A stretch of DNA of 64,000 nt from an uncultured Lachnospiraceae bacterium. Its GTDB lineage: Bacteria; Bacillota; Clostridia; Lachnospirales; Lachnospiraceae. Shown here piece by piece: positions 5,035 through 25,540 of the stretch (positions within the stretch are counted from its first letter, which is position 1; the number at the start of each line of letters is the position of its first letter). Under the pieces are notes generated by a model, which saw only the letters and a program-made list of their open reading frames with translations, did no database searches and was not told the DNA's origin. A program made the position numbers and the translations under genes. The DNA lies in NCBI GenBank assembly GCA_947566645.1, contig CANOKL010000012.1, positions 21,951 through 85,950 of the forward strand. The letters are read 5' to 3'.

Positions 5035-5898
5035 ATGTTAAAGAAAAAAGAAATACTCATCCCCGCCGATACATACGAAAAGCATGCGGTTATCTACCAT
5101 GACACGGATGCTGTGCCAAAGGCCTGTATTTTATATTTCCACGGCGGCGGATTATTATACGGAACAAAGACAGATTTGCCGGATTTTCATGTAAAGACGC
5201 TGACAGAGGCCGGATATCAGATCATTGCCTTTGATTATCCCCTGGCTCCGGCAGCGAAGCTGGATCTGATCTTAGAGGATGTGTGTGCTTCAGTTAATCA
5301 TTATGTAAAGTACGCTTCTATGTATACAGAAAAAAAGCTCCCATATTTCCTGTGGGGGCGCTCTGCAGGGGCATATCTGTGCCTGCTTGCAGCGGCAGGC
5401 GGCAAATTAACGGAAAAGCCCGTGGGCATCCTTTCTTATTATGGATACGGTTTTCTGTGCGACGGGTGGTTCATGACGCCCAGCAAATATTATAATACCC
5501 TCCCTCCTGTCAGTGAGTCCGCCCTGGGAGCCATCCCCTCCGGAATCCACGCAGAAGGAGCCCTGGACAGGCATTACAGCGTTTATGTATATGCAAGGCA
5601 GAAGGGAAACTGGATTGACCTGATCTACGCAGGGAGACAGAAGTTCTTTTACCTGGACTATACCCTCCGGGTGTGCGACAAGATGCCCTGCCCCATCTTC
5701 TGCGCACACAGCACCGGGGATACGGATGTTCCTTACTCCGAATTCCTGGAACTGTGCAATAAATACCGGGCGCAGAGATTCGTTGTGTCCCACAATATGC
5801 ATGATTTCGACCGGGACGCGGAAAGTCCCACGACAGCAAGGCTTTTAGAGGCTACCATTAAATTTCTGGATCTGAAATTGGGGACGGGGCATTTTTAA
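5035..5898 (+). CDS. alpha/beta hydrolase (esterase/lipase, hormone-sensitive-lipase-like fold)
   Basis: ORF track 287 aa. Oxyanion-hole motif YFHGGGLLYG, nucleophile elbow GRSAGAY, RBS AAAGGAGGAG before the ATG. The last residues LGTGHF and the stop come from the palindromic repeat. Confidence 0.7.
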   Translation: MLKKKEILIPADTYEKHAVIYHDTDAVPKACILYFHGGGLLYGTKTDLPDFHVKTLTEAGYQIIAFDYPLAPAAKLDLILEDVCASVNHYVKYASMYTEKKLPYFLWGRSAGAYLCLLAAAGGKLTEKPVGILSYYGYGFLCDGWFMTPSKYYNTLPPVSESALGAIPSGIHAEGALDRHYSVYVYARQKGNWIDLIYAGRQKFFYLDYTLRVCDKMPCPIFCAHSTGDTDVPYSEFLELCNKYRAQRFVVSHNMHDFDRDAESPTTARLLEATIKFLDLKLGTGHF

Positions 5899-5915
5899 AA
5901 ATGCCCCGTCCCCAA
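5878..5915. repeat. 38-bp perfect palindromic element, copy 1
   Basis: TTGGGGACGGGGCATTTTTAAAAATGCCCCGTCCCCAA. It lies between the convergent hydrolase gene and the 55-aa ORF. Confidence 0.9.
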
Positions 5916-9856: not shown

Positions 9857-9894
9857 TTGGGGACGGGGTATTTTTAAAAATACCCCGTCCCCAA
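9857..9894. repeat. 38-bp perfect palindromic element, copy 3
   Basis: TTGGGGACGGGGTATTTTTAAAAATACCCCGTCCCCAA, 5 nt downstream of the permease stop codon. Confidence 0.9.
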
Positions 9895-9898
9895 TTCA

Positions 9899-11260
9899 TT
9901 ATTTTTCAAAGATGGTTCCTTTACAGAATGATCTTGATGTCGGCATGACTTTCATCAGCAGGTAATAAGCCACTCCTGTAGGAATCAGGCTCACATACCA
10001 GGATAGCTGCATTACCAGCAGTGAGCACAGGGATCCGAAGATAATCGCAATGACTGCTGCCCAGTTAATTCCCTTGAAGCATCCCTGTTTGTCATACATG
10101 TCATTGATATCCAGTTTCTTCTTACGAAGAATGAAGTAATCTACTGCCATGACTGCAAAGATTGGTCCGAGGAATGCGGAGTAGAACTGTGTGAAGAGAT
10201 TCAGTCCTGCTGCGGATTCGTCTGTAACCAGTTTCCATGGCATTACGCATGCGGAGAGCACGCCTACAAGGATCGTAGCATGTGTCCATTTCATCTTGAA
10301 GGACTCCATCAGCACGTATGCCGGCGGAACGATATTGTTCAGTACGTTTGTTGTAACCTGTGCAAATGCGATGAAGAGCAGGGTTACGATTGTGAGGACC
10401 TTGCTTCCCATTGTGGTGGAGAATACTACTACCGGGTCGCTGTTTCCTGTTGCTGCTGTTACAAGAAGTCCGATCAGACCCATGAACAGGGTTACAGGAA
10501 GGATTGCTACGGTATAGATACTTGCTGCCTTCACAGGTTTAATGTCATCTGTCGCGTTACGTGAATAGTCGGACGCATTGATGATCATCGTGGAATAAAT
10601 TCCAAGGAAGGACGTGGTTGCTGCCCAGAACGGCATGCCCCATGTTCCCTTGATGCCGGAGAATACGTCCCCGATCTCTGAGGAGAACTGTGTATTTACT
10701 ACATACAGCATGTAGATCAGGATTGCTATAATAAATACGCAGGAAATGTTCTCAAGCCATTTGATTCCCTCGAAGCCCTTGATTGCAAGCAGTACCTGCA
10801 GAAGGGTAAACAGTGCATATACAACCGGAAGGTTACTGATTCCGAAAAGGATATTCAGGCAGCTGTTGATGGCGCCTGCACCTACCCAGCTCTGGAAGCC
10901 AAACCATACAATCGCCGGAAGCCCGCGCAGAACGCCGGGGATCTTAACGCCGGTCGTACCAAAGCTGCTCCTGAGCTGAACGGTGAAGGGGATGCCGTAT
11001 GTATGTCCGCACTCGCCGATAATCGCAAGGGCAATAGCGATAACCAGACACCCGATTACCATTGCCAGGATTGCCTGTGTTACTGTCAGGGCTCCGATCA
11101 GTCCGGCACCCATGGAAAATGTACCGATGGATACACATCCTCCCATAAAGCTTGCCGCATAAGACAGGGTTCCCATAATACGTTTCTTAGTCGGCTGCAG
11201 ATCCGGATCCACATTCTTGACCAGTTCCGGATTTAAGTTTTTATTATCAACTATACTCAT
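9899..11260 (-). CDS. NCS1-family (allantoin/hydantoin/cytosine-type) permease, paralog 1
   Basis: ORF track 453 aa, about 12 hydrophobic segments. NCS1-like FGTTGVKIPGVLRGLPAIVWFGFQSW and NASDYSRN motifs; context next to an allantoinase-like gene. Confidence 0.8.
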   Translation of the reverse strand: MSIVDNKNLNPELVKNVDPDLQPTKKRIMGTLSYAASFMGGCVSIGTFSMGAGLIGALTVTQAILAMVIGCLVIAIALAIIGECGHTYGIPFTVQLRSSFGTTGVKIPGVLRGLPAIVWFGFQSWVGAGAINSCLNILFGISNLPVVYALFTLLQVLLAIKGFEGIKWLENISCVFIIAILIYMLYVVNTQFSSEIGDVFSGIKGTWGMPFWAATTSFLGIYSTMIINASDYSRNATDDIKPVKAASIYTVAILPVTLFMGLIGLLVTAATGNSDPVVVFSTTMGSKVLTIVTLLFIAFAQVTTNVLNNIVPPAYVLMESFKMKWTHATILVGVLSACVMPWKLVTDESAAGLNLFTQFYSAFLGPIFAVMAVDYFILRKKKLDINDMYDKQGCFKGINWAAVIAIIFGSLCSLLVMQLSWYVSLIPTGVAYYLLMKVMPTSRSFCKGTIFEK

Positions 11261-11292
11261 TCTTTCACTCTCTCCTTATTTCTCTTGTATGT

Positions 11293-11369
11293 CCCGGGCG
11301 CGGGGCCAGCACAGCCCTGCGTAATTAACGGTGAATTCTGCAGCGCAGTACCAGAGATTCCCCGCCCGG
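11293..11369 (-). other. GC-rich long imperfect hairpin between the allantoinase-like gene and the permease gene
   Basis: CCGGGCGCGGGG (11294-11305) pairs with CCCCGCCCGG (11360-11369) with one bulge. An inner CTGCG...CGCAG stem sits inside it. No U-tract. Confidence 0.25.
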
Positions 11370-11375
11370 AGCAAA

Positions 11376-12749
11376 TTATTTCAGCTTCTTCACCAGTTCG
11401 CCGGTTCCCTTTTCGCCAACAATCTTGCCGTCTTCTGCGATGACATTGCCGCGTACCAGCGTCATAACCGGAATTCCTTTTCCCTTCAAGCCCACAAAGG
11501 CTGAGATTTTATTGACATACAGAAGGGAATCCTCTGTAATCTCCCATTCCTTCTCTGGGTCAACAATGAGAAGATCCGCGTCAAAGCCTGGCTTAATGTC
11601 GCCTTTCTTTCCATAGATTCCGAATGCCTTCGCAGGCAGTACGGACATAGCATTCGCTAATACGGTCGGGCATACGCCGCGTTTTACAACACCTTCGCTG
11701 AATGCTGCCTGGAAACCGCTCTGGATGCCGGAGCATCCGCCCCATACGTCAAAGACTGTCTCAATCTTGTTGCCGAGAATCTCATTGTACTTCTCGTCAT
11801 AGGAGCACGGGGAATGGTCAGATGCGATTCCGCTGAATACGCCTGCCTTTACATACTCCCACATCTCCTCAACCGCCTCTTTGGGCTGAAGAATCGGCGC
11901 ACACTTGTAAAGTGGTCCTTTTTCTATGACATCTTCATTGCTGAAGGTCAGGTAGTGTGTACAGGTCTCTGCTGTAATATCATACCCCTCATCCTGTGCT
12001 GCCTTGATCTTCTTCGCAACTGCCGGGTGGGATACATGGCAGATGTGAGCCTTACAGCCTGTGGCCTTTGCAATCTCAATAATCGCATCGGTTGCAACAA
12101 TCTCTGCAATCACCGGGCGGGATTCAAGGAATGCCTTCCAGTCATTGCGTCCGGCCTCCTTCATCCTCTTCTCCTGGTTCTTGATGATCGCATAGTCCTC
12201 ACAGTGGAAGCCTGCACGGCCGCCGAACTGCTTAATGATGTCCATGGCTTCTAAAGCCTGGCCGTAATTCAAAGACTCATAGTCCGGGGATACCGGCCCG
12301 ATGAAGGACTTGAAGGATACGCATCCCTTCTCATCCAGATCTTTTAAGTCATTAAAATTATAGCTTGTAAGTCCGCCCCAGAAGCAGAAATCAACATACG
12401 CATTGGGGGAAACCTTATTTTGTTTAAAATCAAATGCTTCCGCATTGGTCATACACGGATCATTCTGAAGAGGCATGTCGATCACGGTCGTATATCCGCC
12501 AAGAGCAGCCGCTGCTGTTCCGTGTTCATAATCCTCACGCCATTCAAAGCCCGGATCATTGAGGTGTGCATGGGTATCAATTGCTCCTGGGAATACATAC
12601 TTCCCTGCCGCATCGATCACCTTTGCTGCCTCCGGCTCATCGCCTGCTGTGAGGACTGCCGCAATCTTACCGTCCTTTATTGCAACATTTCCTTCTATGA
12701 CAGAATCAGCAGTAACGATCTTACCGTTTTTCACCAATACATCATACAT
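11376..12749 (-). CDS. allantoinase-like cyclic amidohydrolase, paralog 1
   Basis: The ORF track gives 465 aa. The better start is MYDVLVKNGK (12749) behind AAGGAGG, matching the paralog's N-terminus. Motifs: GAIDTHAHL (HxH metal site), FKSF (carboxylated-Lys position), HICHVS, SDHSPC. Confidence 0.8.
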   Translation of the reverse strand: MYDVLVKNGKIVTADSVIEGNVAIKDGKIAAVLTAGDEPEAAKVIDAAGKYVFPGAIDTHAHLNDPGFEWREDYEHGTAAAALGGYTTVIDMPLQNDPCMTNAEAFDFKQNKVSPNAYVDFCFWGGLTSYNFNDLKDLDEKGCVSFKSFIGPVSPDYESLNYGQALEAMDIIKQFGGRAGFHCEDYAIIKNQEKRMKEAGRNDWKAFLESRPVIAEIVATDAIIEIAKATGCKAHICHVSHPAVAKKIKAAQDEGYDITAETCTHYLTFSNEDVIEKGPLYKCAPILQPKEAVEEMWEYVKAGVFSGIASDHSPCSYDEKYNEILGNKIETVFDVWGGCSGIQSGFQAAFSEGVVKRGVCPTVLANAMSVLPAKAFGIYGKKGDIKPGFDADLLIVDPEKEWEITEDSLLYVNKISAFVGLKGKGIPVMTLVRGNVIAEDGKIVGEKGTGELVKKLK

Positions 12750-12753
12750 AATT

Positions 12754-13437
12754 TTAGCCTCCTTGTTTTTCATTTCTCTTTTCTATTTCATCCAGAAGAC
12801 GTTTCGTCTCCTGGCAGTATTCAGGAATCTGCTCCACTGAGTGAACCTCACATTCAATCTCCCGTCTCTTATCCGGGACGTTTCCCTTCTGGACCTCCTT
12901 ATCGTACAGTCTGTAGACGCTCTCTGGTCCGTAAATGGACGAAGCCCTGCCCGATCTCAGATAATCCTGTATGGCACATACCGCGTTTAGATTCTGGTAT
13001 CTGTCATAAACTGCACTCTTCTTATAAAGGCTTTCAAGCATCCTTCTTGTACGCTGCTGCGGTTCCTCCAGAAGCTTCACCAGCTCATATGCATGGCAGT
13101 ACTCCTCATATTCCCTCAGAAGCTTCTGGTAAGCCTTCGTCCCCCGCATTTTTAATACAAGGAAGAAAATGACAAGAGCAGCTGTAAATACCGATGCGCC
13201 AATGCCGATCTTCGTATACCCCATAAAAAAAGCAAAGATATCAAACAGCACCCAGGTAACTGAAAGCGAGATCATGCCCAGGGAAGCCCTGTTCCTGTAC
13301 TGCGGCGGCTCCCTGGGAATATAGGTATAGTCCGCATATGCTTCTGCAGTCTTTTTCTGCCTGCAAAGCGACTCCTCCAGCAATACAATATCCCCAAGCT
13401 CCGCCATATACTCTTCCACTGACTTTTTTTCGTCCAT
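12754..13437 (-). CDS. hypothetical protein with two central TM helices
   Basis: ORF track 227 aa. The start overlaps the upstream permease stop (TAATG). Hydrophobic core MISLSVTWVLFDIFAFFMGY...GASVFTAALVIFFLVL between charged coiled-like flanks. I recognise no family. Confidence 0.5.
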   Translation of the reverse strand: MDEKKSVEEYMAELGDIVLLEESLCRQKKTAEAYADYTYIPREPPQYRNRASLGMISLSVTWVLFDIFAFFMGYTKIGIGASVFTAALVIFFLVLKMRGTKAYQKLLREYEEYCHAYELVKLLEEPQQRTRRMLESLYKKSAVYDRYQNLNAVCAIQDYLRSGRASSIYGPESVYRLYDKEVQKGNVPDKRREIECEVHSVEQIPEYCQETKRLLDEIEKRNEKQGG

Positions 13438-14801
13438 TATTTATCTAATGTCGTACCCTTTCTGAAGTTCGCGCATGACGGCATAATCTTCATACCAAAA
13501 TAGAAAATAATAGCCGTCGGAATCGTAGCTGTAAAGAAGGAAATGTCAACATTAAACAGACCGATCACAGCGCCTACTGCAATGGCAATAATTGCCGCCC
13601 AGTTCACGCCCTTATGCTGTCCTTCTTCATTGTACAGATCTTTCAGTAAAGAATCGGAGATCTTTCTTCTGTGGAGAATAAAGTAATCCGTAATCAGTAC
13701 TGCAAAGATTGGTCCGAAGAATGCGGTGTAAATCTTTGTAAACAGAGCAAGGCCTGCTGCAGAGCTGTCATTTGTCAGAACCCATGGACAGGTACATACC
13801 GCAAGGATACCAACAATAATAACTGCTGTCCGGTGCTTCATCTTAAATACATCCATAAATGCATATGCCGGCGGGATTACGTTAGACGCAAGGTTTGTTG
13901 ATAACTGGGCCATAATAATGAAGCACAGAGTTACAACGAGAACAAGCTTGCTGTCAACCATCTCATAAAATGCATTGATCGGGTTTGCAACACCTGTTGC
14001 AGAGCATGCCATAGCGCCGATCATACCAAGAAGTACGGTTGCAGGAACCATAGCGAGGAAATAGGAAATTCCACGTACAGGGCTTGAATAGCCGTCTTTT
14101 ACTTCTCGTGAGTAGTCGCCGGCATTCAGCATAACCGTTGTACTGTTGCCGAAGAATGCAATGATCGCTGCCACGAACGGCATCCCCCATGTTCCTTCGA
14201 TACCAAGAAGGTTCGCGGAAATTGCATCCCACTGTGTTGTCAGGCAGAGGTATAACAGGTAAAGCATAGCAACCGTAATAACCACGCCGCCAATATTTCC
14301 AACCCATTTTGCTCCCTGGAATCCCTTTGTGGAAAGGAAGATCTGAACCAGCTGGAACAAAACAAAGAAGATGACATATCCATACTGAATATCCAGTCCG
14401 AATGCACGGAAGATATTATTAATAGCCGTACCTCCAAGCCATGTCTGATAGCCATACCATACAATCGCCGGAAGACCTCTTATGAATACAGGAACAATAC
14501 TTCCCTTTGTACCAAAGGACATCTTAAGCTGTACTGCATAAGGCGCGCCTGTTACATAGGAAAACTGGTCATTACATGCAATACCAACAACCAGAATGGT
14601 GGAACCGATTAATACCGCAAGGAATAACTGCAGCAGGTTAAGTCCGTTTTCAAGCTGGGCTGAACCCATGGATAAGGTACCGATGGAAATACATCCGCCG
14701 AGCCATAACATGGTATTGGAGCCCCAACTCATGATCCGGTCTTCCTTTTTAATCGGGGCAATTGAGCTGGCCTGTTTCTTTTCGTTATTTACATCACTCA
14801 T
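13437..14801 (-). CDS. NCS1-family permease, paralog 2
   Basis: ORF track 454 aa, colinear with 9899-11260 (FGTKGSIVPVFIRGLPAIVWYGYQTW; NAGDYSRE). Confidence 0.8.
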   Translation of the reverse strand: MSDVNNEKKQASSIAPIKKEDRIMSWGSNTMLWLGGCISIGTLSMGSAQLENGLNLLQLFLAVLIGSTILVVGIACNDQFSYVTGAPYAVQLKMSFGTKGSIVPVFIRGLPAIVWYGYQTWLGGTAINNIFRAFGLDIQYGYVIFFVLFQLVQIFLSTKGFQGAKWVGNIGGVVITVAMLYLLYLCLTTQWDAISANLLGIEGTWGMPFVAAIIAFFGNSTTVMLNAGDYSREVKDGYSSPVRGISYFLAMVPATVLLGMIGAMACSATGVANPINAFYEMVDSKLVLVVTLCFIIMAQLSTNLASNVIPPAYAFMDVFKMKHRTAVIIVGILAVCTCPWVLTNDSSAAGLALFTKIYTAFFGPIFAVLITDYFILHRRKISDSLLKDLYNEEGQHKGVNWAAIIAIAVGAVIGLFNVDISFFTATIPTAIIFYFGMKIMPSCANFRKGTTLDK

Positions 14802-14844
14802 AATCTCTCTCCTTTTTTATAGTAACTGCTCAGTACTCTCACAG

Positions 14845-16248
14845 TTATTTTACCGGCGTGATATACTCGCCATATCCTACTGCTTCATCTTTGTACATGC
14901 CATCAGCTGCAACTACTTTACCTCTGATGATGGTACATGTCGGAGCTCCCTTTCCTTCCTGTCCGTCGAAACAGGATACATGACCCTTGGTAAGAAGCTT
15001 CGTCTGGTCTACTTTCCATGCCTTCTCAGGATCTACGATCACGATATCGCCGTCAAATCCAAGCTCAAATGCACCTTTGCGTCCGTACAGGCCGAAGATC
15101 TTCGCCGGATTGTAATCCATAACCTTTGCGATTAAAGTCGGGCTTAATCCCTTCTTATTCACAACCATATCGAACATCATCGGAAGGAAGAACTGGATTG
15201 CGTTCAGTCCGCCCCATGCATGCCAGATATCCTTTGTTGCATTATCCTTCTCCTCATCTGCTGCCGGAGAATGGTCGCTTCCTACGCAGGACAGGGTTCC
15301 GTCAAGAACATAGTCCCAGAGCTTTTCCATATCTTCCTTTGTACGCATCGGCGGCGTACATTTTGCCGGAGCGCCCTTTTCGAATACGAAGTCCTCTGTA
15401 AATCCAAGGTAGTGAGGACAAGTCTCAGCCGTGATCGGAAGCCCTTCATGGATGGCGTCCTTTACAACCTGTGCTACCATCGGATGACTTACATGGCAGA
15501 TGTGTACACGCCCACCTGTAGCTCTCGCCATGTCAATCACATTCTTTGTAGCAACATACTCTGTCCATACATCATGGGAATCCAGGAAATCACGGATCTT
15601 CTGCTCGTTTGTCTGGCCTTCCTTTGCCTTTGCTTCCTTCTCTCTCTCCAGCACCTGGCCGTACTCTTCGCAGTGGAAACCGCACAAAGCACCATATGGC
15701 TTTAAGATCTCAAGCGCCTTACGGACATTTCCCATGTTCACTGTGGGGAACAGGTCGCCGTTAGGGCAGGTAAATCCTTTGAAAGCGGCAACGCCGCAGT
15801 TATGCAGGTCTACCAGGTCATTCATGTTGTTCTTTACGGAACCCGGCTTGTCGTCATAGTCACCTACAAGCCCGCCCCAGAGCGCGTAGTCAACAACAGA
15901 GTGTTTGCTGATCCTGCCCATCTTAAGATCAAAGATTTCTTTGTTCATAAGAGACGGATCATTGTTGAGCGGCATATCGATCAGTGTCGTACAGCCTGCC
16001 ACAGCTGCTGCCCGTGACCCTGTCTCAAAGTCCTCTCTGTACTCAAAGCCAGGCTCATTCAGATGCGCATGACAGTCGATAATTCCCGGGAACACGTAAT
16101 TGCCCTTTGCATCAATTGTCTCCTTCGCTTCCGCCTCGGTTCCGGGCGCAAAAAATGCAGCATACTTTCCATCCGTGATGGCAATGTCTGCTTCATAGAT
16201 ACGGTCCGGAGTTACTAGTTTTCCATTTCGAATCACTAAATCGTACAT
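14845..16248 (-). CDS. allantoinase-like cyclic amidohydrolase, paralog 2
   Basis: ORF track 467 aa. MYDLVIRNGK..., GIIDCHAHL, AFKGF, HICHVS, SDHSPA. By eye roughly half the residues are identical to paralog 1 in the N-terminal 100 aa. Confidence 0.8.
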   Translation of the reverse strand: MYDLVIRNGKLVTPDRIYEADIAITDGKYAAFFAPGTEAEAKETIDAKGNYVFPGIIDCHAHLNEPGFEYREDFETGSRAAAVAGCTTLIDMPLNNDPSLMNKEIFDLKMGRISKHSVVDYALWGGLVGDYDDKPGSVKNNMNDLVDLHNCGVAAFKGFTCPNGDLFPTVNMGNVRKALEILKPYGALCGFHCEEYGQVLEREKEAKAKEGQTNEQKIRDFLDSHDVWTEYVATKNVIDMARATGGRVHICHVSHPMVAQVVKDAIHEGLPITAETCPHYLGFTEDFVFEKGAPAKCTPPMRTKEDMEKLWDYVLDGTLSCVGSDHSPAADEEKDNATKDIWHAWGGLNAIQFFLPMMFDMVVNKKGLSPTLIAKVMDYNPAKIFGLYGRKGAFELGFDGDIVIVDPEKAWKVDQTKLLTKGHVSCFDGQEGKGAPTCTIIRGKVVAADGMYKDEAVGYGEYITPVK

Positions 16249-16311
16249 GTACTGTACCTCCTTAAAAATTTAAAAAACAACTGGTCAACCCTTTTTTAAC
16301 ATCCTATATGT

Positions 16312-16340
16312 ATTTTAATGCAAAATCATGCAAAGCACAA
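16312..16340 (-). promoter_or_regulatory. weak candidate promoter for the allantoinase/permease operon
   Basis: The minus strand reads TTGTGC-17 nt-TAAAAT within a 327-nt AT-rich divergent intergenic region. Confidence 0.2.
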
Positions 16341-16605
16341 TATCATTAATTATCAAATATGAAACTCTTTTTTTGTGAAATATAGACAAAAACAAACGCT
16401 GTTTCATAAATTTTGAAGAATATCTATTCAAATCATCTCATATTACGACATGTTCCGATTAAAATATGTACAAAAAAAATTAAAATTTTAGCAACCACTT
16501 TTTAATATTTCCCAATTGTTTTTTTATTCCACTTCTGATAACATATCTATCATAAATATTGCCAAATAAATAACAATGAATACAGTAGAAAGGGGATCTG
16601 CTTCC

Positions 16606-17463
16606 ATGAAATTTTCTATTATCACAATGTCGGATTATGCCGCAGGAATCTTAAAAAAATCAAAAAACGGAGTCGTACATTCCGTTTACCGGAAAACCAT
16701 CAATCTCAGCCTCGGAAAGGAACTCATAGCACTTCAGGCCGTAGATTCGCCTCTGTCTCCCATCAGCCTGATTACAGAGCTTTCTGCGCATGATATGGAG
16801 CTCCTCTCCATAAAAGCAGGAACCCCTGTACACCTGTCAGGAAGCCAGATAGAAATCTGCTCTCCAGAGAAATCCTGTGTCATCTCCTGTGCCGGCGCAG
16901 ACAGACACAATCTTCTGCTTCGCCCTGTAGATGCACCCAAGACCGGGGAATTCCGCCTGTATCTGGCCGGAAGCATAAATGCGGTTCTCTCAGGCACAGA
17001 AACAGGCGGCTTTGATTCCATATTTTATGGGGAACCAGAAAGAGAACTGTCCCTGATCCTCCTTACAGCAAAAAAAATTATCAGGGAATGTGAAGAGCTG
17101 TACCGTCAGCAAAAATATCAGGAAGCCGGAAGCCGCCTGACCTCACTGATCGGCCTGGGAGGCGGGCTCACGCCGGGAGGCGATGATTTTCTGTGCGGGG
17201 TCCTGGCAGGGCTCACTCTGACAGGCCAGGAGAATCATGAATTTTGCCGGGCCTTAAGAGAAGGAATTTACAGCCGTCTTGCCGACACTGTGGATATCAG
17301 TGCCGCTTTTCTTTCCTGCGCCCTCAAAGGGCAGTACAGCCTGGCCGTCAATACACTGAGGCACCAGCCTTCCCCTGGAGAAATTCTTTCTATGTTCTCA
17401 AAAATCGGACATTCCTCCGGAATTGATACCCTGTGCGGAGTCCTCTATGCATTAAAGCTATAG
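16606..17463 (+). CDS. DUF2877 / YlbF-like protein
   Basis: ORF track 16576-17463. The likelier start is MKFSIITM (16606), 9 nt after GAAAGGGGA. Motifs GLGGGLTPGGDDFLCGVLAG and IGHSSGIDTLCG are typical of the family as I recall it. Confidence 0.6.
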   Translation: MKFSIITMSDYAAGILKKSKNGVVHSVYRKTINLSLGKELIALQAVDSPLSPISLITELSAHDMELLSIKAGTPVHLSGSQIEICSPEKSCVISCAGADRHNLLLRPVDAPKTGEFRLYLAGSINAVLSGTETGGFDSIFYGEPERELSLILLTAKKIIRECEELYRQQKYQEAGSRLTSLIGLGGGLTPGGDDFLCGVLAGLTLTGQENHEFCRALREGIYSRLADTVDISAAFLSCALKGQYSLAVNTLRHQPSPGEILSMFSKIGHSSGIDTLCGVLYALKL

Positions 17464-17505
17464 TGTGAATAGTAACTGAATCACATTCTTACGGAATGCG
17501 CGGTC

Positions 17506-17534
17506 TTGAATCTTGTTTCAATATGTGTTAAATT
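17506..17534 (+). promoter_or_regulatory. candidate promoter (extended -10) for the IbrA/IbrB-like pair
   Basis: TTGAAT (17506-17511), 17-nt spacer ending in TGT, then TAAATT (17529-17534), about 65 nt before the start at 17598. Confidence 0.3.
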
Positions 17535-17597
17535 ATTTTACAGGCACTGGAAATTTTTACCATATTTATTCACAAAAGATCGTGGGGTGTTTAAAAC

Positions 17598-18929
17598 TTG
17601 GAACGTGAATACTTAAGTGAAAATGTTTATGAGGCATTTTTAAAGCGGATGAAACTTATTTTTGAGGAATTTGACAATATCTATATCTCCTTTTCAGGCG
17701 GAAAAGACAGCGGGCTGCTTCTTAATATGGTACTGGATTACCAGCGGAAGCATTTCCCATGGAAAAGGCTTGGTGTCTTCCACCAGGACTTTGAAGCCCA
17801 GTACACTGTGACCACCGAATATGTAGAACGGACTTTTGAAAGCATTAAGCATGAAGTGGAACCTTACTGGGTCTGCCTCCCCATGGCTACAAGGACTGCG
17901 CTGAGCAGCTACGAAATGTACTGGTATCCCTGGGATGACAAGAAAAAAAGCGCCTGGGTACGCAAGATGCCTGATAAGGAATACGTCATCAATCTGGAGA
18001 ATAATCCCATGTTTACCTATCACTATAAAATGCATCAGGAGGATCTGGCCAAGCAGTTCGGCCGATGGTACCGCATGTCCCATGGGAGGAAGAAAACGGT
18101 CTGTCTTCTCGGCATCCGCGCCGATGAGTCCCTGCAGCGGTACAGCGGCGTCTTAAATAAGAAATACGGCTACAAGGATGAATGCTGGATTACAAAACAG
18201 TTCAAGGACGTGTGGTGCGCCTCACCTTTGTATGACTGGTCCACAGAGGATATCTGGCATGCAAATTATTTATTCCAGTATGACTATAATCATCTGTACG
18301 ATCTCTATTATAAGGCCGGACTTACGGTGTCACAAATGCGTGTAGCTTCTCCATTCAATGATTACTCTAAAGATTCCCTGAACCTGTACCGGGTTATTGA
18401 CCCCGAAATCTGGGTAAAGCTTGTGGGGAGGGTCCGCGGAGCAAATTTCGGTGCCCTCTACGGCAGGACAAAGGCCATGGGCTACCGGAATGTTACACTT
18501 CCTGCGGGCCATACATGGAAATCCTACACAATGTTCCTTCTTGACACTCTTCCGGCGAGACTGCGCAACAATTATGCCAAAAAGTTCAACTCTTCCATTG
18601 AGTTCTGGCATAAAACCGGAGGCGGCCTTGATGAGGAGACGATTGAAGAGCTGGAAGAGCATGGATACAAGATTAAAAGAAACGGTGTTTCAAACTATAC
18701 TTTAAACAAAAAGTCCAGGATTATATTTCTGGAAAGTATTCCCGACAATACAGATGACATCAAATCCTCCAGGGACGTCCCCAGCTGGAAGCGTATGTGC
18801 TACTGCATTCTGAAAAACGACCATATCTGCCGCTTCATGGGTTTTGGCATGAACCGGGAGCAGCAAAAGAGAATCAATGAAATAAAAGAAAAATACAAAG
18901 GTATTGAGGAGATGAATTATGATGCGTAA
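17598..18929 (+). CDS. PP-loop PAPS-reductase-like protein with DUF3440-like C-terminal domain (IbrA-like)
   Basis: ORF track 443 aa (TTG start; an in-frame ATG lies 17 codons in). PP-loop ISFSGGKDSGLLL; C-terminal ...PSWKRMCYCILKNDHICRFMGFG. Confidence 0.7.
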   Translation: MEREYLSENVYEAFLKRMKLIFEEFDNIYISFSGGKDSGLLLNMVLDYQRKHFPWKRLGVFHQDFEAQYTVTTEYVERTFESIKHEVEPYWVCLPMATRTALSSYEMYWYPWDDKKKSAWVRKMPDKEYVINLENNPMFTYHYKMHQEDLAKQFGRWYRMSHGRKKTVCLLGIRADESLQRYSGVLNKKYGYKDECWITKQFKDVWCASPLYDWSTEDIWHANYLFQYDYNHLYDLYYKAGLTVSQMRVASPFNDYSKDSLNLYRVIDPEIWVKLVGRVRGANFGALYGRTKAMGYRNVTLPAGHTWKSYTMFLLDTLPARLRNNYAKKFNSSIEFWHKTGGGLDEETIEELEEHGYKIKRNGVSNYTLNKKSRIIFLESIPDNTDDIKSSRDVPSWKRMCYCILKNDHICRFMGFGMNREQQKRINEIKEKYKGIEEMNYDA

Positions 18930-19485
18930 GAGTCCTGTCTACAGTGTAACCGCTGTGCCAATTGAAAAGATTAAGCCAAACACCTATAATCCCAACACCG
19001 TTGCCCCTCCCGAAATGCGGCTTCTCTATGACAGCATTAAGGCAGACGGATATACCATGCCCGTTGTATGCTATTATGATAAGGAGGATGACAGCTATAT
19101 TATTGTAGACGGATTCCACCGCTACCGCATCATGCTGGAATATCCGGATATATACGAACGGGAGCACGGGCTTCTCCCTGTCTCTGTCATCAACAAGCCC
19201 CTGGATCACAGAATGGCAAGCACCATCCGTCATAACCGCGCCAGGGGAAGTCATGATGTGGATCTGATGAGCAATATTGTACGGGAGCTGCATGAATTAG
19301 GACGCTCAGATGCATGGATCTCAAAGCATCTGGGAATGGATAAGGATGAGATTCTAAGACTGAAACAGATTACAGGCTTAGCCGCTTTATTTAAAGACAT
19401 CAACTTTGGCATGGCCTGGCGGCCTGCCGATACGGATAAGTCGGATAAAGCTGACGATAAGGGGACGGGGCATTTTTCGCCATAG
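18919..19485 (+). CDS. ParB/sulfiredoxin-fold protein (IbrB-like)
   Basis: ORF track 188 aa. It overlaps the upstream CDS by 11 nt. Motifs: IEKIKPNTYNPN, IVDGFHRYRI, IRHNRARGSH. The C-terminal GTGHFSP comes from repeat copy 4. Confidence 0.7.
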   Translation: MMRKSPVYSVTAVPIEKIKPNTYNPNTVAPPEMRLLYDSIKADGYTMPVVCYYDKEDDSYIIVDGFHRYRIMLEYPDIYEREHGLLPVSVINKPLDHRMASTIRHNRARGSHDVDLMSNIVRELHELGRSDAWISKHLGMDKDEILRLKQITGLAALFKDINFGMAWRPADTDKSDKADDKGTGHFSP

Positions 19486-19540
19486 CGCACCTCAAAGGCT
19501 CCAGTGGAGCGTTTGAGGTGAAAAATACCCCGTCCCCAAT
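19459..19540. repeat. composite copy of the palindromic element split by a 43-bp nested hairpin, copy 4
   Basis: GGGGACGGGGCATTTTT + CGCCATAGCGCACCTCAAAGGCTCCAGTGGAGCGTTTGAGGTG + AAAAATACCCCGTCCCC. The insert carries a CACCTCAAA/TTTGAGGTG stem with an inner GCTCC/GGAGC stem. Confidence 0.8.
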
Positions 19541-19544
19541 TGCA

Positions 19545-20513
19545 CTATTTGTCAAGGAGATGGCATGCTGCCATATGTCCTGGAGCAACCTCACGGAGCT
19601 TCGGCATCTCCGAAAAGCACCGGTCTGTGGCATACTGGCATCTCTCGGCAAATCTGCAGCAGTTCTTCGGATTAATGGGACTTGGAATCTCACCCTTAAT
19701 CGGAATACGCTCATTGGCCTTTGCCTTCTTCGGATCCGCCTCCGGAATGGCTGAAAGCAGCGCCTTTGTGTACGGATGAACCGGATTTGCATAGAGTTCC
19801 TCCGTCTCCGCAGTTTCCACCAGTGTTCCAAGGTACATTACCACAACCCTGTCTGAGATATATTTTACAACGCTTAAGTCATGCGCAATGAACAGATAGG
19901 TAAGCCCCATGGTCTCCTGCAGATTCTTCAGCATATTGATAACCTGCGCCTGGATGGATACGTCCAGTGCGGAGATCGGCTCATCGCAGATAATGAATTC
20001 CGGGTCAACCGAAAGGGCACGGGCAATGCCGATCCTCTGTCTCTGTCCGCCGGAGAATTCGTGGGGGAACCTTGACATATGGTCCTTGTTAAGGCCTACG
20101 GTCTCCAGGAGAGCCTCCACCTTCTTGTCCACTTCCTCCCGGGACATTCCATGCTGCTTAAGACCCTCGCCTACAATCTCCTTTACTGTCATACGGGGAT
20201 TCAGGGATGCATAAGGATTCTGGAAGATCATCTGCACCTTTTTACAGAATGCCTTCTGCTCCTCCTTCGAAAGCTTTGTAATATCCTTCCCGTCATAGAT
20301 TACCTGGCCTTTTGTAGGCTCATACAGACGAATCATACATCTTCCGGTTGTAGACTTTCCACACCCGGATTCCCCAACCAGACTGACTGTCTCGCCTTTA
20401 TAGATATCGAAGCTCACCCCGTCTACTGCTTTGAGCTCCGCCGTGCGGCTGACGTGGAAATACTTACATAATTCCTTTACCTGTACGAGAGGCTGTTTTG
20501 TCTCATTTGCCAT
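19545..20513 (-). CDS. Opp/Dpp-type ABC transporter ATP-binding protein (OppF-like)
   Basis: ORF track 322 aa. [24 protein letters not shown]. Confidence 0.85.
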   Translation of the reverse strand: MANETKQPLVQVKELCKYFHVSRTAELKAVDGVSFDIYKGETVSLVGESGCGKSTTGRCMIRLYEPTKGQVIYDGKDITKLSKEEQKAFCKKVQMIFQNPYASLNPRMTVKEIVGEGLKQHGMSREEVDKKVEALLETVGLNKDHMSRFPHEFSGGQRQRIGIARALSVDPEFIICDEPISALDVSIQAQVINMLKNLQETMGLTYLFIAHDLSVVKYISDRVVVMYLGTLVETAETEELYANPVHPYTKALLSAIPEADPKKAKANERIPIKGEIPSPINPKNCCRFAERCQYATDRCFSEMPKLREVAPGHMAACHLLDK

Positions 20514-21550
20514 TATCTTACCTCTCCTTTCTTCTCCGGTTTTTTCTTCATATCATTATCCGGCGCCATCTCATGCTGCAGCCAGCAGCAGGTTGCATGC
20601 TCATCCGTAAGCTGGTATACTTCCGGAGGCATCTCATTGCAGACGTCCATACAGTAGTCGCATCTTGCTGCAAACGGACATCCGACCGGAGGGGAGAACA
20701 GATCCGGAGGAGTTCCCTCAATAGGCTGAAGCTTCTCACCCTTAGCTGTGTCAAGCTTTGCGATCGAATTCATCAGTCCCTTCGTGTATGGATGCGCCGT
20801 ATCATAGAACAGCTCATCTGCCGTACCTCTCTCTACAACCTTCCCGCCATACATTACAATAACGCGGTCACAGAGTCTTGCGATGACGCCCAGGTCGTGA
20901 GTAATCATGATGATAGATGTTCCAAGCTTCTCCCGAAGATCCAGCAGAAGATCCAGAATCTGCGCTTCGATTGTTACATCCAGTGAAGTTGTGGGCTCAT
21001 CACAGATGATCAGGCTCGGGCGGCTTACGAGAGCAATGGCGATCATAATACGCTGCTTCATACCACCGGATAATTCATGGGGATACTGTCTGTAACGCTT
21101 CTCTACATCAGAGATTCCTACCAGCTTCATAATCTCAAGGGCGCGGTCCTTTACTTCCTTTTTCGTCACACCCGTACGTCCCAGGAATACCTCCTCAATC
21201 TGCGCTCCGACTCTCATGGTCGGATTCAGAGAGGTCATGGGATCCTGAAATACAAAGCCAATCTCCCCGCCTCTGATCTTGCGGATCTCCTTATTGGACA
21301 TCTTTAAGATATCCTGGCCCTTAAAGAGGATCTCTCCGCCTCCGAAGAATCCTGGCGGTTCCGGGTTCAGCCTCAGGATGCACTGGGCGGTTACGCTCTT
21401 TCCACAGCCGGATTCCCCCACAATACCCAGGATCTCTCCCTTGCGGACCTCAAAGCTTACATCCCGCACTGCCTTAACCTCTCCGCCGTAGGTATGGAAG
21501 GAATATACTACATTTTTTAATTCAAGAATGTTTTCTTTTTCTGCCATCAT
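20513..21550 (-). CDS. Opp/Dpp-type ABC transporter ATP-binding protein (OppD-like)
   Basis: ORF track 345 aa. [24 protein letters not shown]. Confidence 0.85.
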
Positions 21551-25502: not shown

Positions 25503-25540
25503 TGGGGACGGGGTATTTTTAAAAATACCCCGTCCCCAAT
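25503..25540. repeat. 38-bp perfect palindromic element, copy 5
   Basis: TTGGGGACGGGGTATTTTTAAAAATACCCCGTCCCCAA, flanked by AA/TT. It supplies LGTGYF and the stop of cbiC. Confidence 0.9.

Follow-up and report, generated by a model that had tools for sequence, protein, structure and literature searches.

What is the function of a gene pair that couples a PP-loop enzyme to a ParB-like protein, and should such a pair be counted among mobile conflict systems or among the settled genes of its host? The question is raised by ibrA and ibrB, which lie at 17598-19485 of a 64,000-nt stretch of the Lachnospiraceae contig CANOKL010000012.1 (the window, to whose positions all coordinates refer). A first-pass annotation of this DNA took the pair to be an isolated, island-like accessory or conflict system. 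In our analysis the pair belongs to the IbrA/IbrB (YbdN/YbdM, COG3969) family, and in this lineage it is an ancient, strongly conserved chromosomal operon and not a recently acquired defence island. The locus is a member of a known, annotated, uncharacterised family and does not represent a new kind of system. In the full-text literature on the family we found no functional study, substrate or product, in agreement with what the annotation had said of it. The pair consists of:

17598..18929, + strand: ibrA, 443 aa, TTG start; PP-loop N-terminal domain at residues 1-240, DUF3440 C-terminal domain at residues 241-443
18919..19485, + strand: ibrB, 188 aa, ATG start; ParB/sulfiredoxin (Srx) N-terminal domain, helix-turn-helix at about 113-160, acidic variable tail
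17582..17589, + strand: ribosome-binding site of ibrA, GTGGGGTG, 8 nt ahead of the TTG; read from sequence
18906..18911, + strand: ribosome-binding site of ibrB, GAGGAG, within the 3' end of ibrA; read from sequence

The two overlapping plus-strand genes of the first-pass annotation are confirmed at these positions, with reading frames that share 11 nt (18919-18929), an overlap that recurs in the gene calls of related loci. The TTG start of ibrA is supported because homologues align across residues 1-443 and a ribosome-binding site is present; the closest clade likewise starts at TTG, after AGGAGGTG, and in relatives the ibrA ribosome-binding site is AGGAGGTG or AGGTG. With its own ribosome-binding site inside ibrA and its frame overlapping that of ibrA, ibrB is translationally coupled to it.

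The IbrA protein

The description of gene 1 as a PP-loop SGGKDSG protein with a DUF3440 domain is borne out by profile searches. Residues 28-238 match PF01507 PAPS_reduct (E = 2.7e-9) and residues 241-424 match PF11922 DUF3440 over positions 1-181 of the 182 in the model (E = 4.7e-87; 290.9 bits, cut-off 25). The protein contains both SGGKDSG and PSWKRMCYCILKNDHICRFMGFG and matches phrog_2302 (E = 1e-98). Among 35 diverse family members the PP-loop, S33-G-G-K-D-S38, is nearly invariant; S38, D64, E66, W109, S178, D213, D218, N231, Y234, R278, G281 and D408 are invariant, and the motifs GIRxDES..R and P.YDW..D.W are retained in the family alignment. In an AlphaFold model (predicted local distance difference test score, pLDDT, 82.1) residues 1-240 were matched by Foldseek to CysH, the PAPS domain of FAD synthase, CysD and APS reductase, and more loosely to TilS, TtuA and NcsA. 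A profile search of the PDB placed the FAD synthase PAPS domain and CysD first, followed by CysH; the closest solved structures to the N-terminal domain are 6vpu, 8rom and 1zun, and the top viral structural match is COG3969. Because the PP-loop is canonical, IbrA most likely binds ATP and moves AMP onto a substrate oxygen, releasing pyrophosphate. The nearest solved PP-loop relatives, FAD synthase and CysD, are adenylyltransferases.

The cysteines of IbrA are informative about what this chemistry would not be. The 35-member alignment contains no ECGLH motif, no CxxC and no conserved cysteine set: C93 is found in 32 of the 35 sequences (although not in E. coli YbdN), C411 in 24 and C401 in 20. 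Judged by these residues, the chemistry of IbrA is neither DndC-type sulfur insertion nor CysH-type sulfonucleotide reduction, and we regard CysH-type reduction and the Fe-S and cysteine-dyad chemistry of DndC as excluded because both ECGLH and a conserved cysteine set are missing. A grouping of gene 1 with CysH, which the first-pass annotation had named beforehand as telling against its reading, was not found, since there is neither an ECGLH motif nor a sulfate-assimilation context.

The DUF3440 domain (residues 241-443) is helical in the model and basic, with an isoelectric point of 9.3. Searches of the PDB by sequence, profile and fold recovered no solved structural relative of it, all matches stopping at the N-terminal domain. 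Longer members of the IbrA family contain no informative domain fusions, the ABC_tran and PGA_cap cases resembling chimeric gene calls.

The IbrB protein

Gene 2 had been assigned to the ParB/Srx fold from the motifs DGFHRYRI and IRHNRARGSH. Both motifs are present and are invariant in relatives, as D64-G-F-H-R68 and R104-H-N-R-A-R-G110 (RHNRARG, 104-110), although the match to PF02195 ParB_N (22.7 bits) falls just under the gathering score of 26.3. The assignment is backed by a match to phrog_2159 (phage ParB-like, E = 5e-78), by a profile match to Noc and by the fold: in Foldseek an AlphaFold model, used for fold class only, retrieved C-terminally truncated Noc, ParB and KorB over 140-169 columns. 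The DGxHR form of the motif is common to DndB and sulfiredoxin. A ParB-like helix-turn-helix follows, and then a variable acidic tail. IbrB is a truncated ParB, with a DGxHR ParB/Srx nucleoside triphosphate (NTP)-binding domain and a helix-turn-helix and without the dimerisation domain.

The ligands of ParB-fold proteins are ATP, CTP or GTP, fusions of such proteins to DNA-modifying enzymes are frequent (bioRxiv 10.1101/2025.10.10.680097), and in phrog_498 an IbrB-type N-terminal domain is fused to DNA methyltransferases. Relatives of IbrB are named 'IbrB-like domain-containing protein' in their source records, the name that RefSeq also gives to E. coli YbdM; together with phage homologues annotated as IbrA and IbrB this confirms the IbrA/IbrB architecture that had been proposed for the pair. 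A metagenomic IbrB homologue of 323 aa (P0121) has an extra N-terminal region of 150 residues ahead of the IbrB-like part, with overlapping matches to ParB_N and GmrSD_N (DUF262), and may be a duplication or a miscalled gene.

Conservation of the pair in Lachnospiraceae

The window IbrA has 99% protein identity to one on a contig of Lachnospiraceae bacterium isolate C64_1 (MGBC000228). Relatives at 79-89% identity were found in at least 578 species-representative genomes, the matches listed including Dorea, Blautia, Roseburia, Marvinbryantia, Fusicatenibacter, Acetatifactor and other genera. In every related locus that is not cut by a contig end, ibrB lies directly 3' of ibrA, and IbrB identity is 76-90%. 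The synonymous sites of ibrA were saturated in 79 of 79 comparisons, with nonsynonymous divergence (dN) of 0.06-0.12. As synonymous divergence (dS) is saturated at such low dN, the pair must be old in Lachnospiraceae and under very strong purifying selection.

Clustering of open reading frames within 8 kb of the pair in 80 loci revealed no further gene family in more than 10 loci. The 150 immediate neighbours from 78 species represent 149 Pfam families, the commonest accounting for 5 of the 150, and matches to defence models among these neighbours were scattered only. A SNF2 helicase gene is absent within 8 kb of the pair in the 80 related loci and from the whole 64-kb window. GC content is the same in the pair as in its flanks, and this clade was found on 3 of 2.9 million viral contigs, each time close to the contig end. 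The reading of the pair as an island-like accessory system therefore fails for this lineage, on grounds of distribution, constraint, GC content, the lack of a conserved neighbour or defence partner, scarcity on viral contigs, and the core status of the E. coli paralogue ybdNM.

Promoter and candidate operator

Two regulatory features precede ibrA:

17506..17534, + strand: ibrAB promoter; -35 TTGAAT at 17506-17511, 17-nt spacer, extended -10 TG-n-TAAATT at 17526-17534
17548..17562, + strand: candidate operator TGGAAATTTTTACCA; TGGAAA-TTT-TTACCA, inverted TGGWAA half-sites just 3' of the -10

The signature TTGAhn-N11-15-TGYRnTAvAWT was present in 50 of the 78 upstream regions of other species and in none of 10,608 control windows. 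The pair does have a promoter of its own, as had been claimed; the site at 17537-17566 is a weak consensus match, and cross-species conservation favours 17506-17534 instead. Pairs of TGGWAA half-sites 8-13 nt apart occur in 53 of the 78 upstream regions, compared to 1.5% of control windows. The TGGWAA/TTWCCA hexamers come in twos or threes, with spacing classes of 11, 10 and 9 nt, and are concentrated 21-50 nt ahead of the start codon. Within the 64-kb window the operator at 17548-17562 is the sole such site. An Rfam scan of 16000-21000 (E<=1) detected no riboswitch or leader, only chance matches of microRNA type to a long hairpin.

Promoter and TGGWAA operator stay with ibrAB although the neighbouring genes differ between loci. 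As the unit carries along no DNA-binding protein other than IbrB, the simplest inference, drawn by analogy with DndB and KorB, is that IbrB would bind this site and autoregulate ibrAB. Neither the SNF2-IbrA-IbrB operon of the 57% clade nor the phage module showed the operator in its upstream region, and for this reason the regulatory site of IbrAB operons appears to be clade-specific. Upstream of the 57%-clade operon (L099, 5590-5625) another palindrome, TTGCAAAAATCCAGAATTTTTTTGCAA, is found in place of the TGGWAA repeats.

The wider family and its architectures

At E<=1e-30 the IbrA family comprises 345 clusters at 50% identity. Homologues of IbrA occur on 226 phage records, many annotated IbrA/IbrB or 'co-activator of prophage gene expression', and on 727 plasmid records, being common on Klebsiella and Escherichia plasmids. 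Three architectures were seen: SNF2-IbrA-IbrB triads, dyads (this Lachnospiraceae clade and E. coli) and solo IbrA. Among the more distant loci with an IbrB (IbrA identity 40-67%), a SNF2 helicase adjoins the pair in 25 of 27. The triad helicases are short and mutually homologous (31-70% identity), and the triads are found in four phage groups, including Streptococcus, Lactobacillus and Fusobacterium phages, as well as on the chromosome of a very abundant bacterium, at a locus outside any prophage. The linkage of SNF2 to IbrA and IbrB points to double-stranded DNA as the target. The solo IbrA clade, 46% identical to the window IbrA, is found on IMG/VR contigs (L118-L133 and L144; for example L120, 5902-7275). 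There the gene stands at the margin of prophage-like contigs, beside a tyrosine integrase whose arm-binding domain is of Bacteroides type, with neither IbrB nor a helicase.

In E. coli K-12 the ybdN-ybdM genes are in the same order as in the window, with overlapping frames, and the pair is present in 5401 of 5426 complete E. coli genomes, with extra copies in some. It is repressed by the adjacent LysR protein CitR/YbdO (PMC9068703), deletion of which raises ybdN 5.5 log2-fold and cysDNC, cysJI and cysAWU 2-2.8 log2-fold (PMC9068703 Table 1). At this locus (L093, 4748-6570) derepression of ybdNM is thus accompanied by a rise of the sulfate-assimilation regulon (PMC9068703). The pair lmo1309/lmo1310 is core in Listeria, and its TASmania listing as a toxin-antitoxin system is by guilt by association only (PMC7020466). 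We rejected the toxin-antitoxin reading, for which we found no evidence and which is at odds with the core status, the protein size and the enzyme folds. In Mycobacterium phage Nebkiss the module is elaborated differently: gp104 (L097, 4808-5707) is an IbrB-type ParB with an N-terminal Ectoine_synth/cupin domain (E = 1.3e-32); a neighbour annotated 'DNA helicase' has a borderline PD-(D/E)XK nuclease match (E = 1.1e-4) and no SNF2 match.

Possible function of the pair

The reading to which we tentatively lean, with somewhat less than even confidence, is that IbrA and IbrB form a DNA-directed, ATP-dependent adenylylating or modifying complex, in which IbrB serves as DNA-binding, NTP-gated partner and autoregulator and the target is DNA or a DNA-bound component. 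IbrB would bind the TGGWAA repeats over the transcription start, autoregulating the operon; it would probably bind other DNA as well, gated by NTP, and would recruit or control IbrA. IbrA may then adenylate a position on the DNA (a nucleobase carbonyl, or a backbone or terminal phosphate) or a DNA-bound protein, and the adenylated position may be activated for substitution or may stay AMP-modified. The Lachnospiraceae clade would possess a minimal constitutive chromosomal pair, the SNF2 translocase of most other lineages being gone, and the pair would behave as a conserved housekeeping or epigenetic function and not as a mobile defence module. DNA as the target is suggested by the SNF2 linkage, by the occurrence on phage and plasmid records and by the basic DUF3440 domain. 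We further speculate that IbrA and IbrB, with SNF2 where present, may constitute an unrecognised, non-sulfur, adenylation-driven DNA modification or an AMPylation of DNA ends or backbone, with DUF3440 a new substrate-binding fold, and that gut Lachnospiraceae and E. coli (YbdNM) may have domesticated it for an epigenetic or genome-maintenance function that is constitutive and autoregulated; this broader proposal is a doubtful one.

Several observations weigh against a DNA-modifying complex. The case for a DNA target depends on gene neighbourhood in other clades, the present clade being without SNF2 within 8 kb in the 80 loci and in the 64-kb window. Strong conservation without a mobile or defence context is also typical of tRNA and rRNA modification enzymes, and the substrates of PP-loop enzymes are for the most part RNA or small molecules. 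Solo IbrA exists, so that IbrB is not always needed in cis. The AlphaFold model of IbrB has a pLDDT of 59 and was built on a shallow alignment. The TGGWAA operator could be a global regulator's site; its inverted form may somewhat resemble a CodY box. IbrAB is reportedly an activator of prophage eib genes in E. coli (work on ECOR-9), the one genetic phenotype that we know for it, and this would equally fit a purely regulatory role.

In such a role, which we consider unlikely, IbrB would be a switch of the KorB or DndB kind, IbrA would make or consume a nucleotide-derived ligand or AMPylate a chromatin or transcription protein, and silenced genes would change expression while no nucleic acid is modified. 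The annotation of homologues as co-activators of prophage gene expression is in keeping with this, as are the resemblance of IbrB to KorB and Noc and the conserved operator at the transcription start. Some bacterial SNF2 proteins, RapA for one, also act on RNA polymerase. Further, a LysR repressor is dedicated to ybdNM, and when the pair is derepressed the expression of cys and flagellar genes changes broadly (PMC9068703). However, a ligand sensor would need less than an enzyme of 443 residues whose active site is invariant and which has a large additional domain, both basic and conserved; IbrA also occurs without IbrB, and both lytic and temperate phages carry the family beside replication genes, which fits action on DNA. 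A further reading is a stand-alone anti-phage or anti-plasmid conflict system, working by modification and discrimination or through an NTP-depleting or nicking ParB/Srx effector, or else a counter-defence by which a phage would label its own DNA. Phages, prophages and plasmids often carry the family, ParB/Srx domains are found in many defence systems, including DndB, SspE, GmrSD and DpdB (PMC11662687, PMC12839542), and there is weak similarity to DndC and BrxP in PADLOC. We nevertheless hold this to be improbable: the window locus has no effector or nuclease partner, no defence-island neighbours, no family-level PADLOC match and no compositional anomaly, its conservation looks ancient and vertical, the clade is nearly absent from viral contigs, and a modification-only module confers no immunity alone.

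Modification of tRNA or rRNA is improbable as well, though it fits the conservation. IbrA would then resemble TilS, TtcA or MnmA and adenylate an RNA base carbonyl, with IbrB as an accessory subunit of NTPase or kinase-like type. Where PP-loop enzymes with additional C-terminal domains have been characterised, their substrate is mostly tRNA; TilS, TtuA and NcsA are among the Foldseek matches; and the clade combines extreme, ancient conservation with the lack of a mobile context, its paralogue being core in E. coli. Yet beyond the N-terminal domain the TilS alignments have root-mean-square deviations of 17-19 A, the partner has a ParB-type DNA-binding helix-turn-helix, SNF2 double-stranded DNA translocases accompany 25 of the 27 more distant loci, the family is common on phages and conjugative plasmids, and thiolation is unlikely as no Fe-S or catalytic cysteine set is conserved. 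A role in sulfur or nucleotide metabolism, with IbrA a CysH- or CysD-like sulfonucleotide enzyme and the ParB/Srx partner sulfiredoxin-like or serine-kinase-like (an 'auxiliary metabolic gene'), we regard as very improbable. It would agree with the Pfam PAPS_reduct match, the filing of the family under auxiliary metabolic genes in PHROGs, the treatment of such genes as sulfur-metabolism genes in phage papers (PMC12323421), the rise of the cys regulon on derepression of ybdNM in E. coli, and the proteins Srx, SerK and SbnI, in which the ParB/Srx fold acts on proteins or small molecules. Against it stand the missing ECGLH cysteine and cysteine set, a CysD model score of 15.8 bits for IbrA against a cut-off of 195, the lack of sulfate-assimilation genes nearby, the DNA-binding helix-turn-helix of IbrB and the linkage of relatives to a SNF2 helicase.

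Whichever function applies, the family is large. It belongs to the core genome of E. coli, is very abundant among Firmicutes of the human and mouse gut, and is commonly carried by phages and plasmids. Its routine classification in virome studies as a sulfur 'auxiliary metabolic gene' is contradicted by the lack of the CysH catalytic motif. The comparison offers several points of entry: promoter and operator are defined, three architectures (dyad, triad, solo) are at hand, Fe-S and thiol chemistry is excluded, and DUF3440 is a domain without a solved structure. The family-wide question is more tractable in E. coli or in phage than in the window organism.

The palindromic element and the neighbouring genes

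The first-pass annotation had the pair end in a palindromic element:

19461..19537, no strand: REP-like palindrome, arms GGGGACGGGGYATTTTT, in which a second hairpin is nested; located between ibrB and oppF, which converge

The element is real (predicted folding energy -57.8 kcal/mol, z = -6.7) and probably terminates transcription in both directions, but it is a species-specific repeated element and no feature of the ibrAB pair. The perfect palindrome TTGGGGACGGGGYATTTTTAAAAATRCCCCGTCCCCAA has four copies in the window (5880-5913, 9859-9892, 19461-19537 and 25504-25537), located at or near the ends or boundaries of open reading frames, and its arms give 8 matches in 64 kb, compared to 0.06 expected by chance. 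It is confined to the loci of this species and is missing from the fetched loci of other species. The last seven codons of IbrB (GTGHFSP) come from the inserted palindrome, which is why the protein has 188 aa in the window while that of relatives ends at about 174 aa.

Flanking minus-strand operons had been recognised correctly, although three plus-strand genes, and not two, lie between them, an AllH-like gene (PF11392, 16576-17463) preceding ibrA and ibrB. The neighbours of the locus comprise this gene, an amidohydrolase, a permease, and Opp and cobalamin genes, ibrB being convergent with oppF. The upstream pyrimidine/purine-catabolism-like cluster (9899-17463), compared with relatives L001 and L014-L016, is mosaic between close relatives, which suggests recent exchange or replacement; in these relatives a sugar ABC transporter is inserted between allH and ibrA. 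In the same relatives the amidohydrolase is 96-98% identical, the permease 77-98% and the AllH-like protein about 50%, against 85-89% for IbrA. Because the region is mosaic, the question of vertical or horizontal descent was approached through the saturated dS instead of through the flanking genes.

Comparison with known systems

YbdN/YbdM of E. coli and the IbrA/IbrB island genes (COG3969) share with the window pair the same two gene-1 domains (PF01507 and PF11922), a gene 2 of ParB/Srx and helix-turn-helix, and the gene order. YbdN is about 31% identical to the window IbrA, with a shorter DUF3440 match and without Cys93, and the frames overlap by 28 nt in K-12 compared to 11 nt in the window. 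Regulation differs also: the E. coli pair has the divergent LysR repressor CitR (PMC9068703), whereas the window clade has the TGGWAA-repeat operator and no adjacent regulator. The SNF2 triads (phrog_62/phrog_2302/phrog_2159), with IbrA 40-67% and IbrB 54-77% identical to the window proteins, have the same order and are tightly packed; they differ in possessing the helicase that the window and the 80 Lachnospiraceae loci lack within 8 kb.

The fold of the IbrA N-terminal 240 residues is common to CysH, CysD and eukaryotic FAD synthase, from which IbrA is set apart by the extra 200-aa DUF3440 domain, the ParB partner and a context without sulfur or flavin genes. Identity with CysH was rejected on the missing C-terminal ECG[LI]H catalytic cysteine, the C-terminal cysteines C401 and C411 being present in only 20 and 24 of 35 sequences. 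BrxP of type 4 BREX, a PAPS reductase with a Cys-rich ferredoxin-like region that is found beside PglZ/BrxC and other BREX genes (PMC12839542), was likewise rejected, the model scoring 25.4 bits over residues 24-87 only and no BREX genes lying nearby; PADLOC returned no family-level match for either IbrA or IbrB. The 7-deazaguanine system offers a parallel in organisation, as the insertion of a base into DNA by DpdA is driven there by DpdB, a ParB-like ATPase (PMC12839542). There, too, a ParB-like NTPase supports a DNA-modifying enzyme, whereas the partner in the window is a PP-loop enzyme and the window pair lacks both a TGT-family enzyme and DpdC; among the genes called in L007 and L008, two loci of the same species, there was no TGT-family (DpdA) neighbour.

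IbrB has in common with ParB, Noc and KorB an N-terminal NTP-binding domain and a helix-turn-helix. Partition ParB itself was rejected, with TIGR00180 at 19.8 bits against 58.45, no dimerisation domain, no ParA neighbour and DGFHR instead of GERRxR. The analogy with DndC that had been drawn for gene 1 holds for the fold only. The Dnd system does likewise pair a PAPS-reductase-fold PP-loop enzyme, DndC, with a ParB-fold DGxHR protein, DndB. Gene 1 itself misses the curated DndC cut-off, TIGR03183 scoring 20.1 bits against 290.4, and the PADLOC DndC model gives 27 bits over 100 residues only. DndC is defined by a [4Fe-4S] cluster on three cysteines and by a cysteine dyad (PMC10853773, PMC11662687), both of which are absent from IbrA, and it has no DUF3440 domain; dndA/iscS, dndD and dndE occur neither in the window flanks nor among the immediate neighbours from 78 species. 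DndB, a ParB-fold protein, represses its own modification operon in an ATP-dependent manner (PMC10853773; bioRxiv 10.1101/2025.10.10.680097), and this self-repression provides a model for how IbrB may act at the operator ahead of ibrA (PMC10853773).

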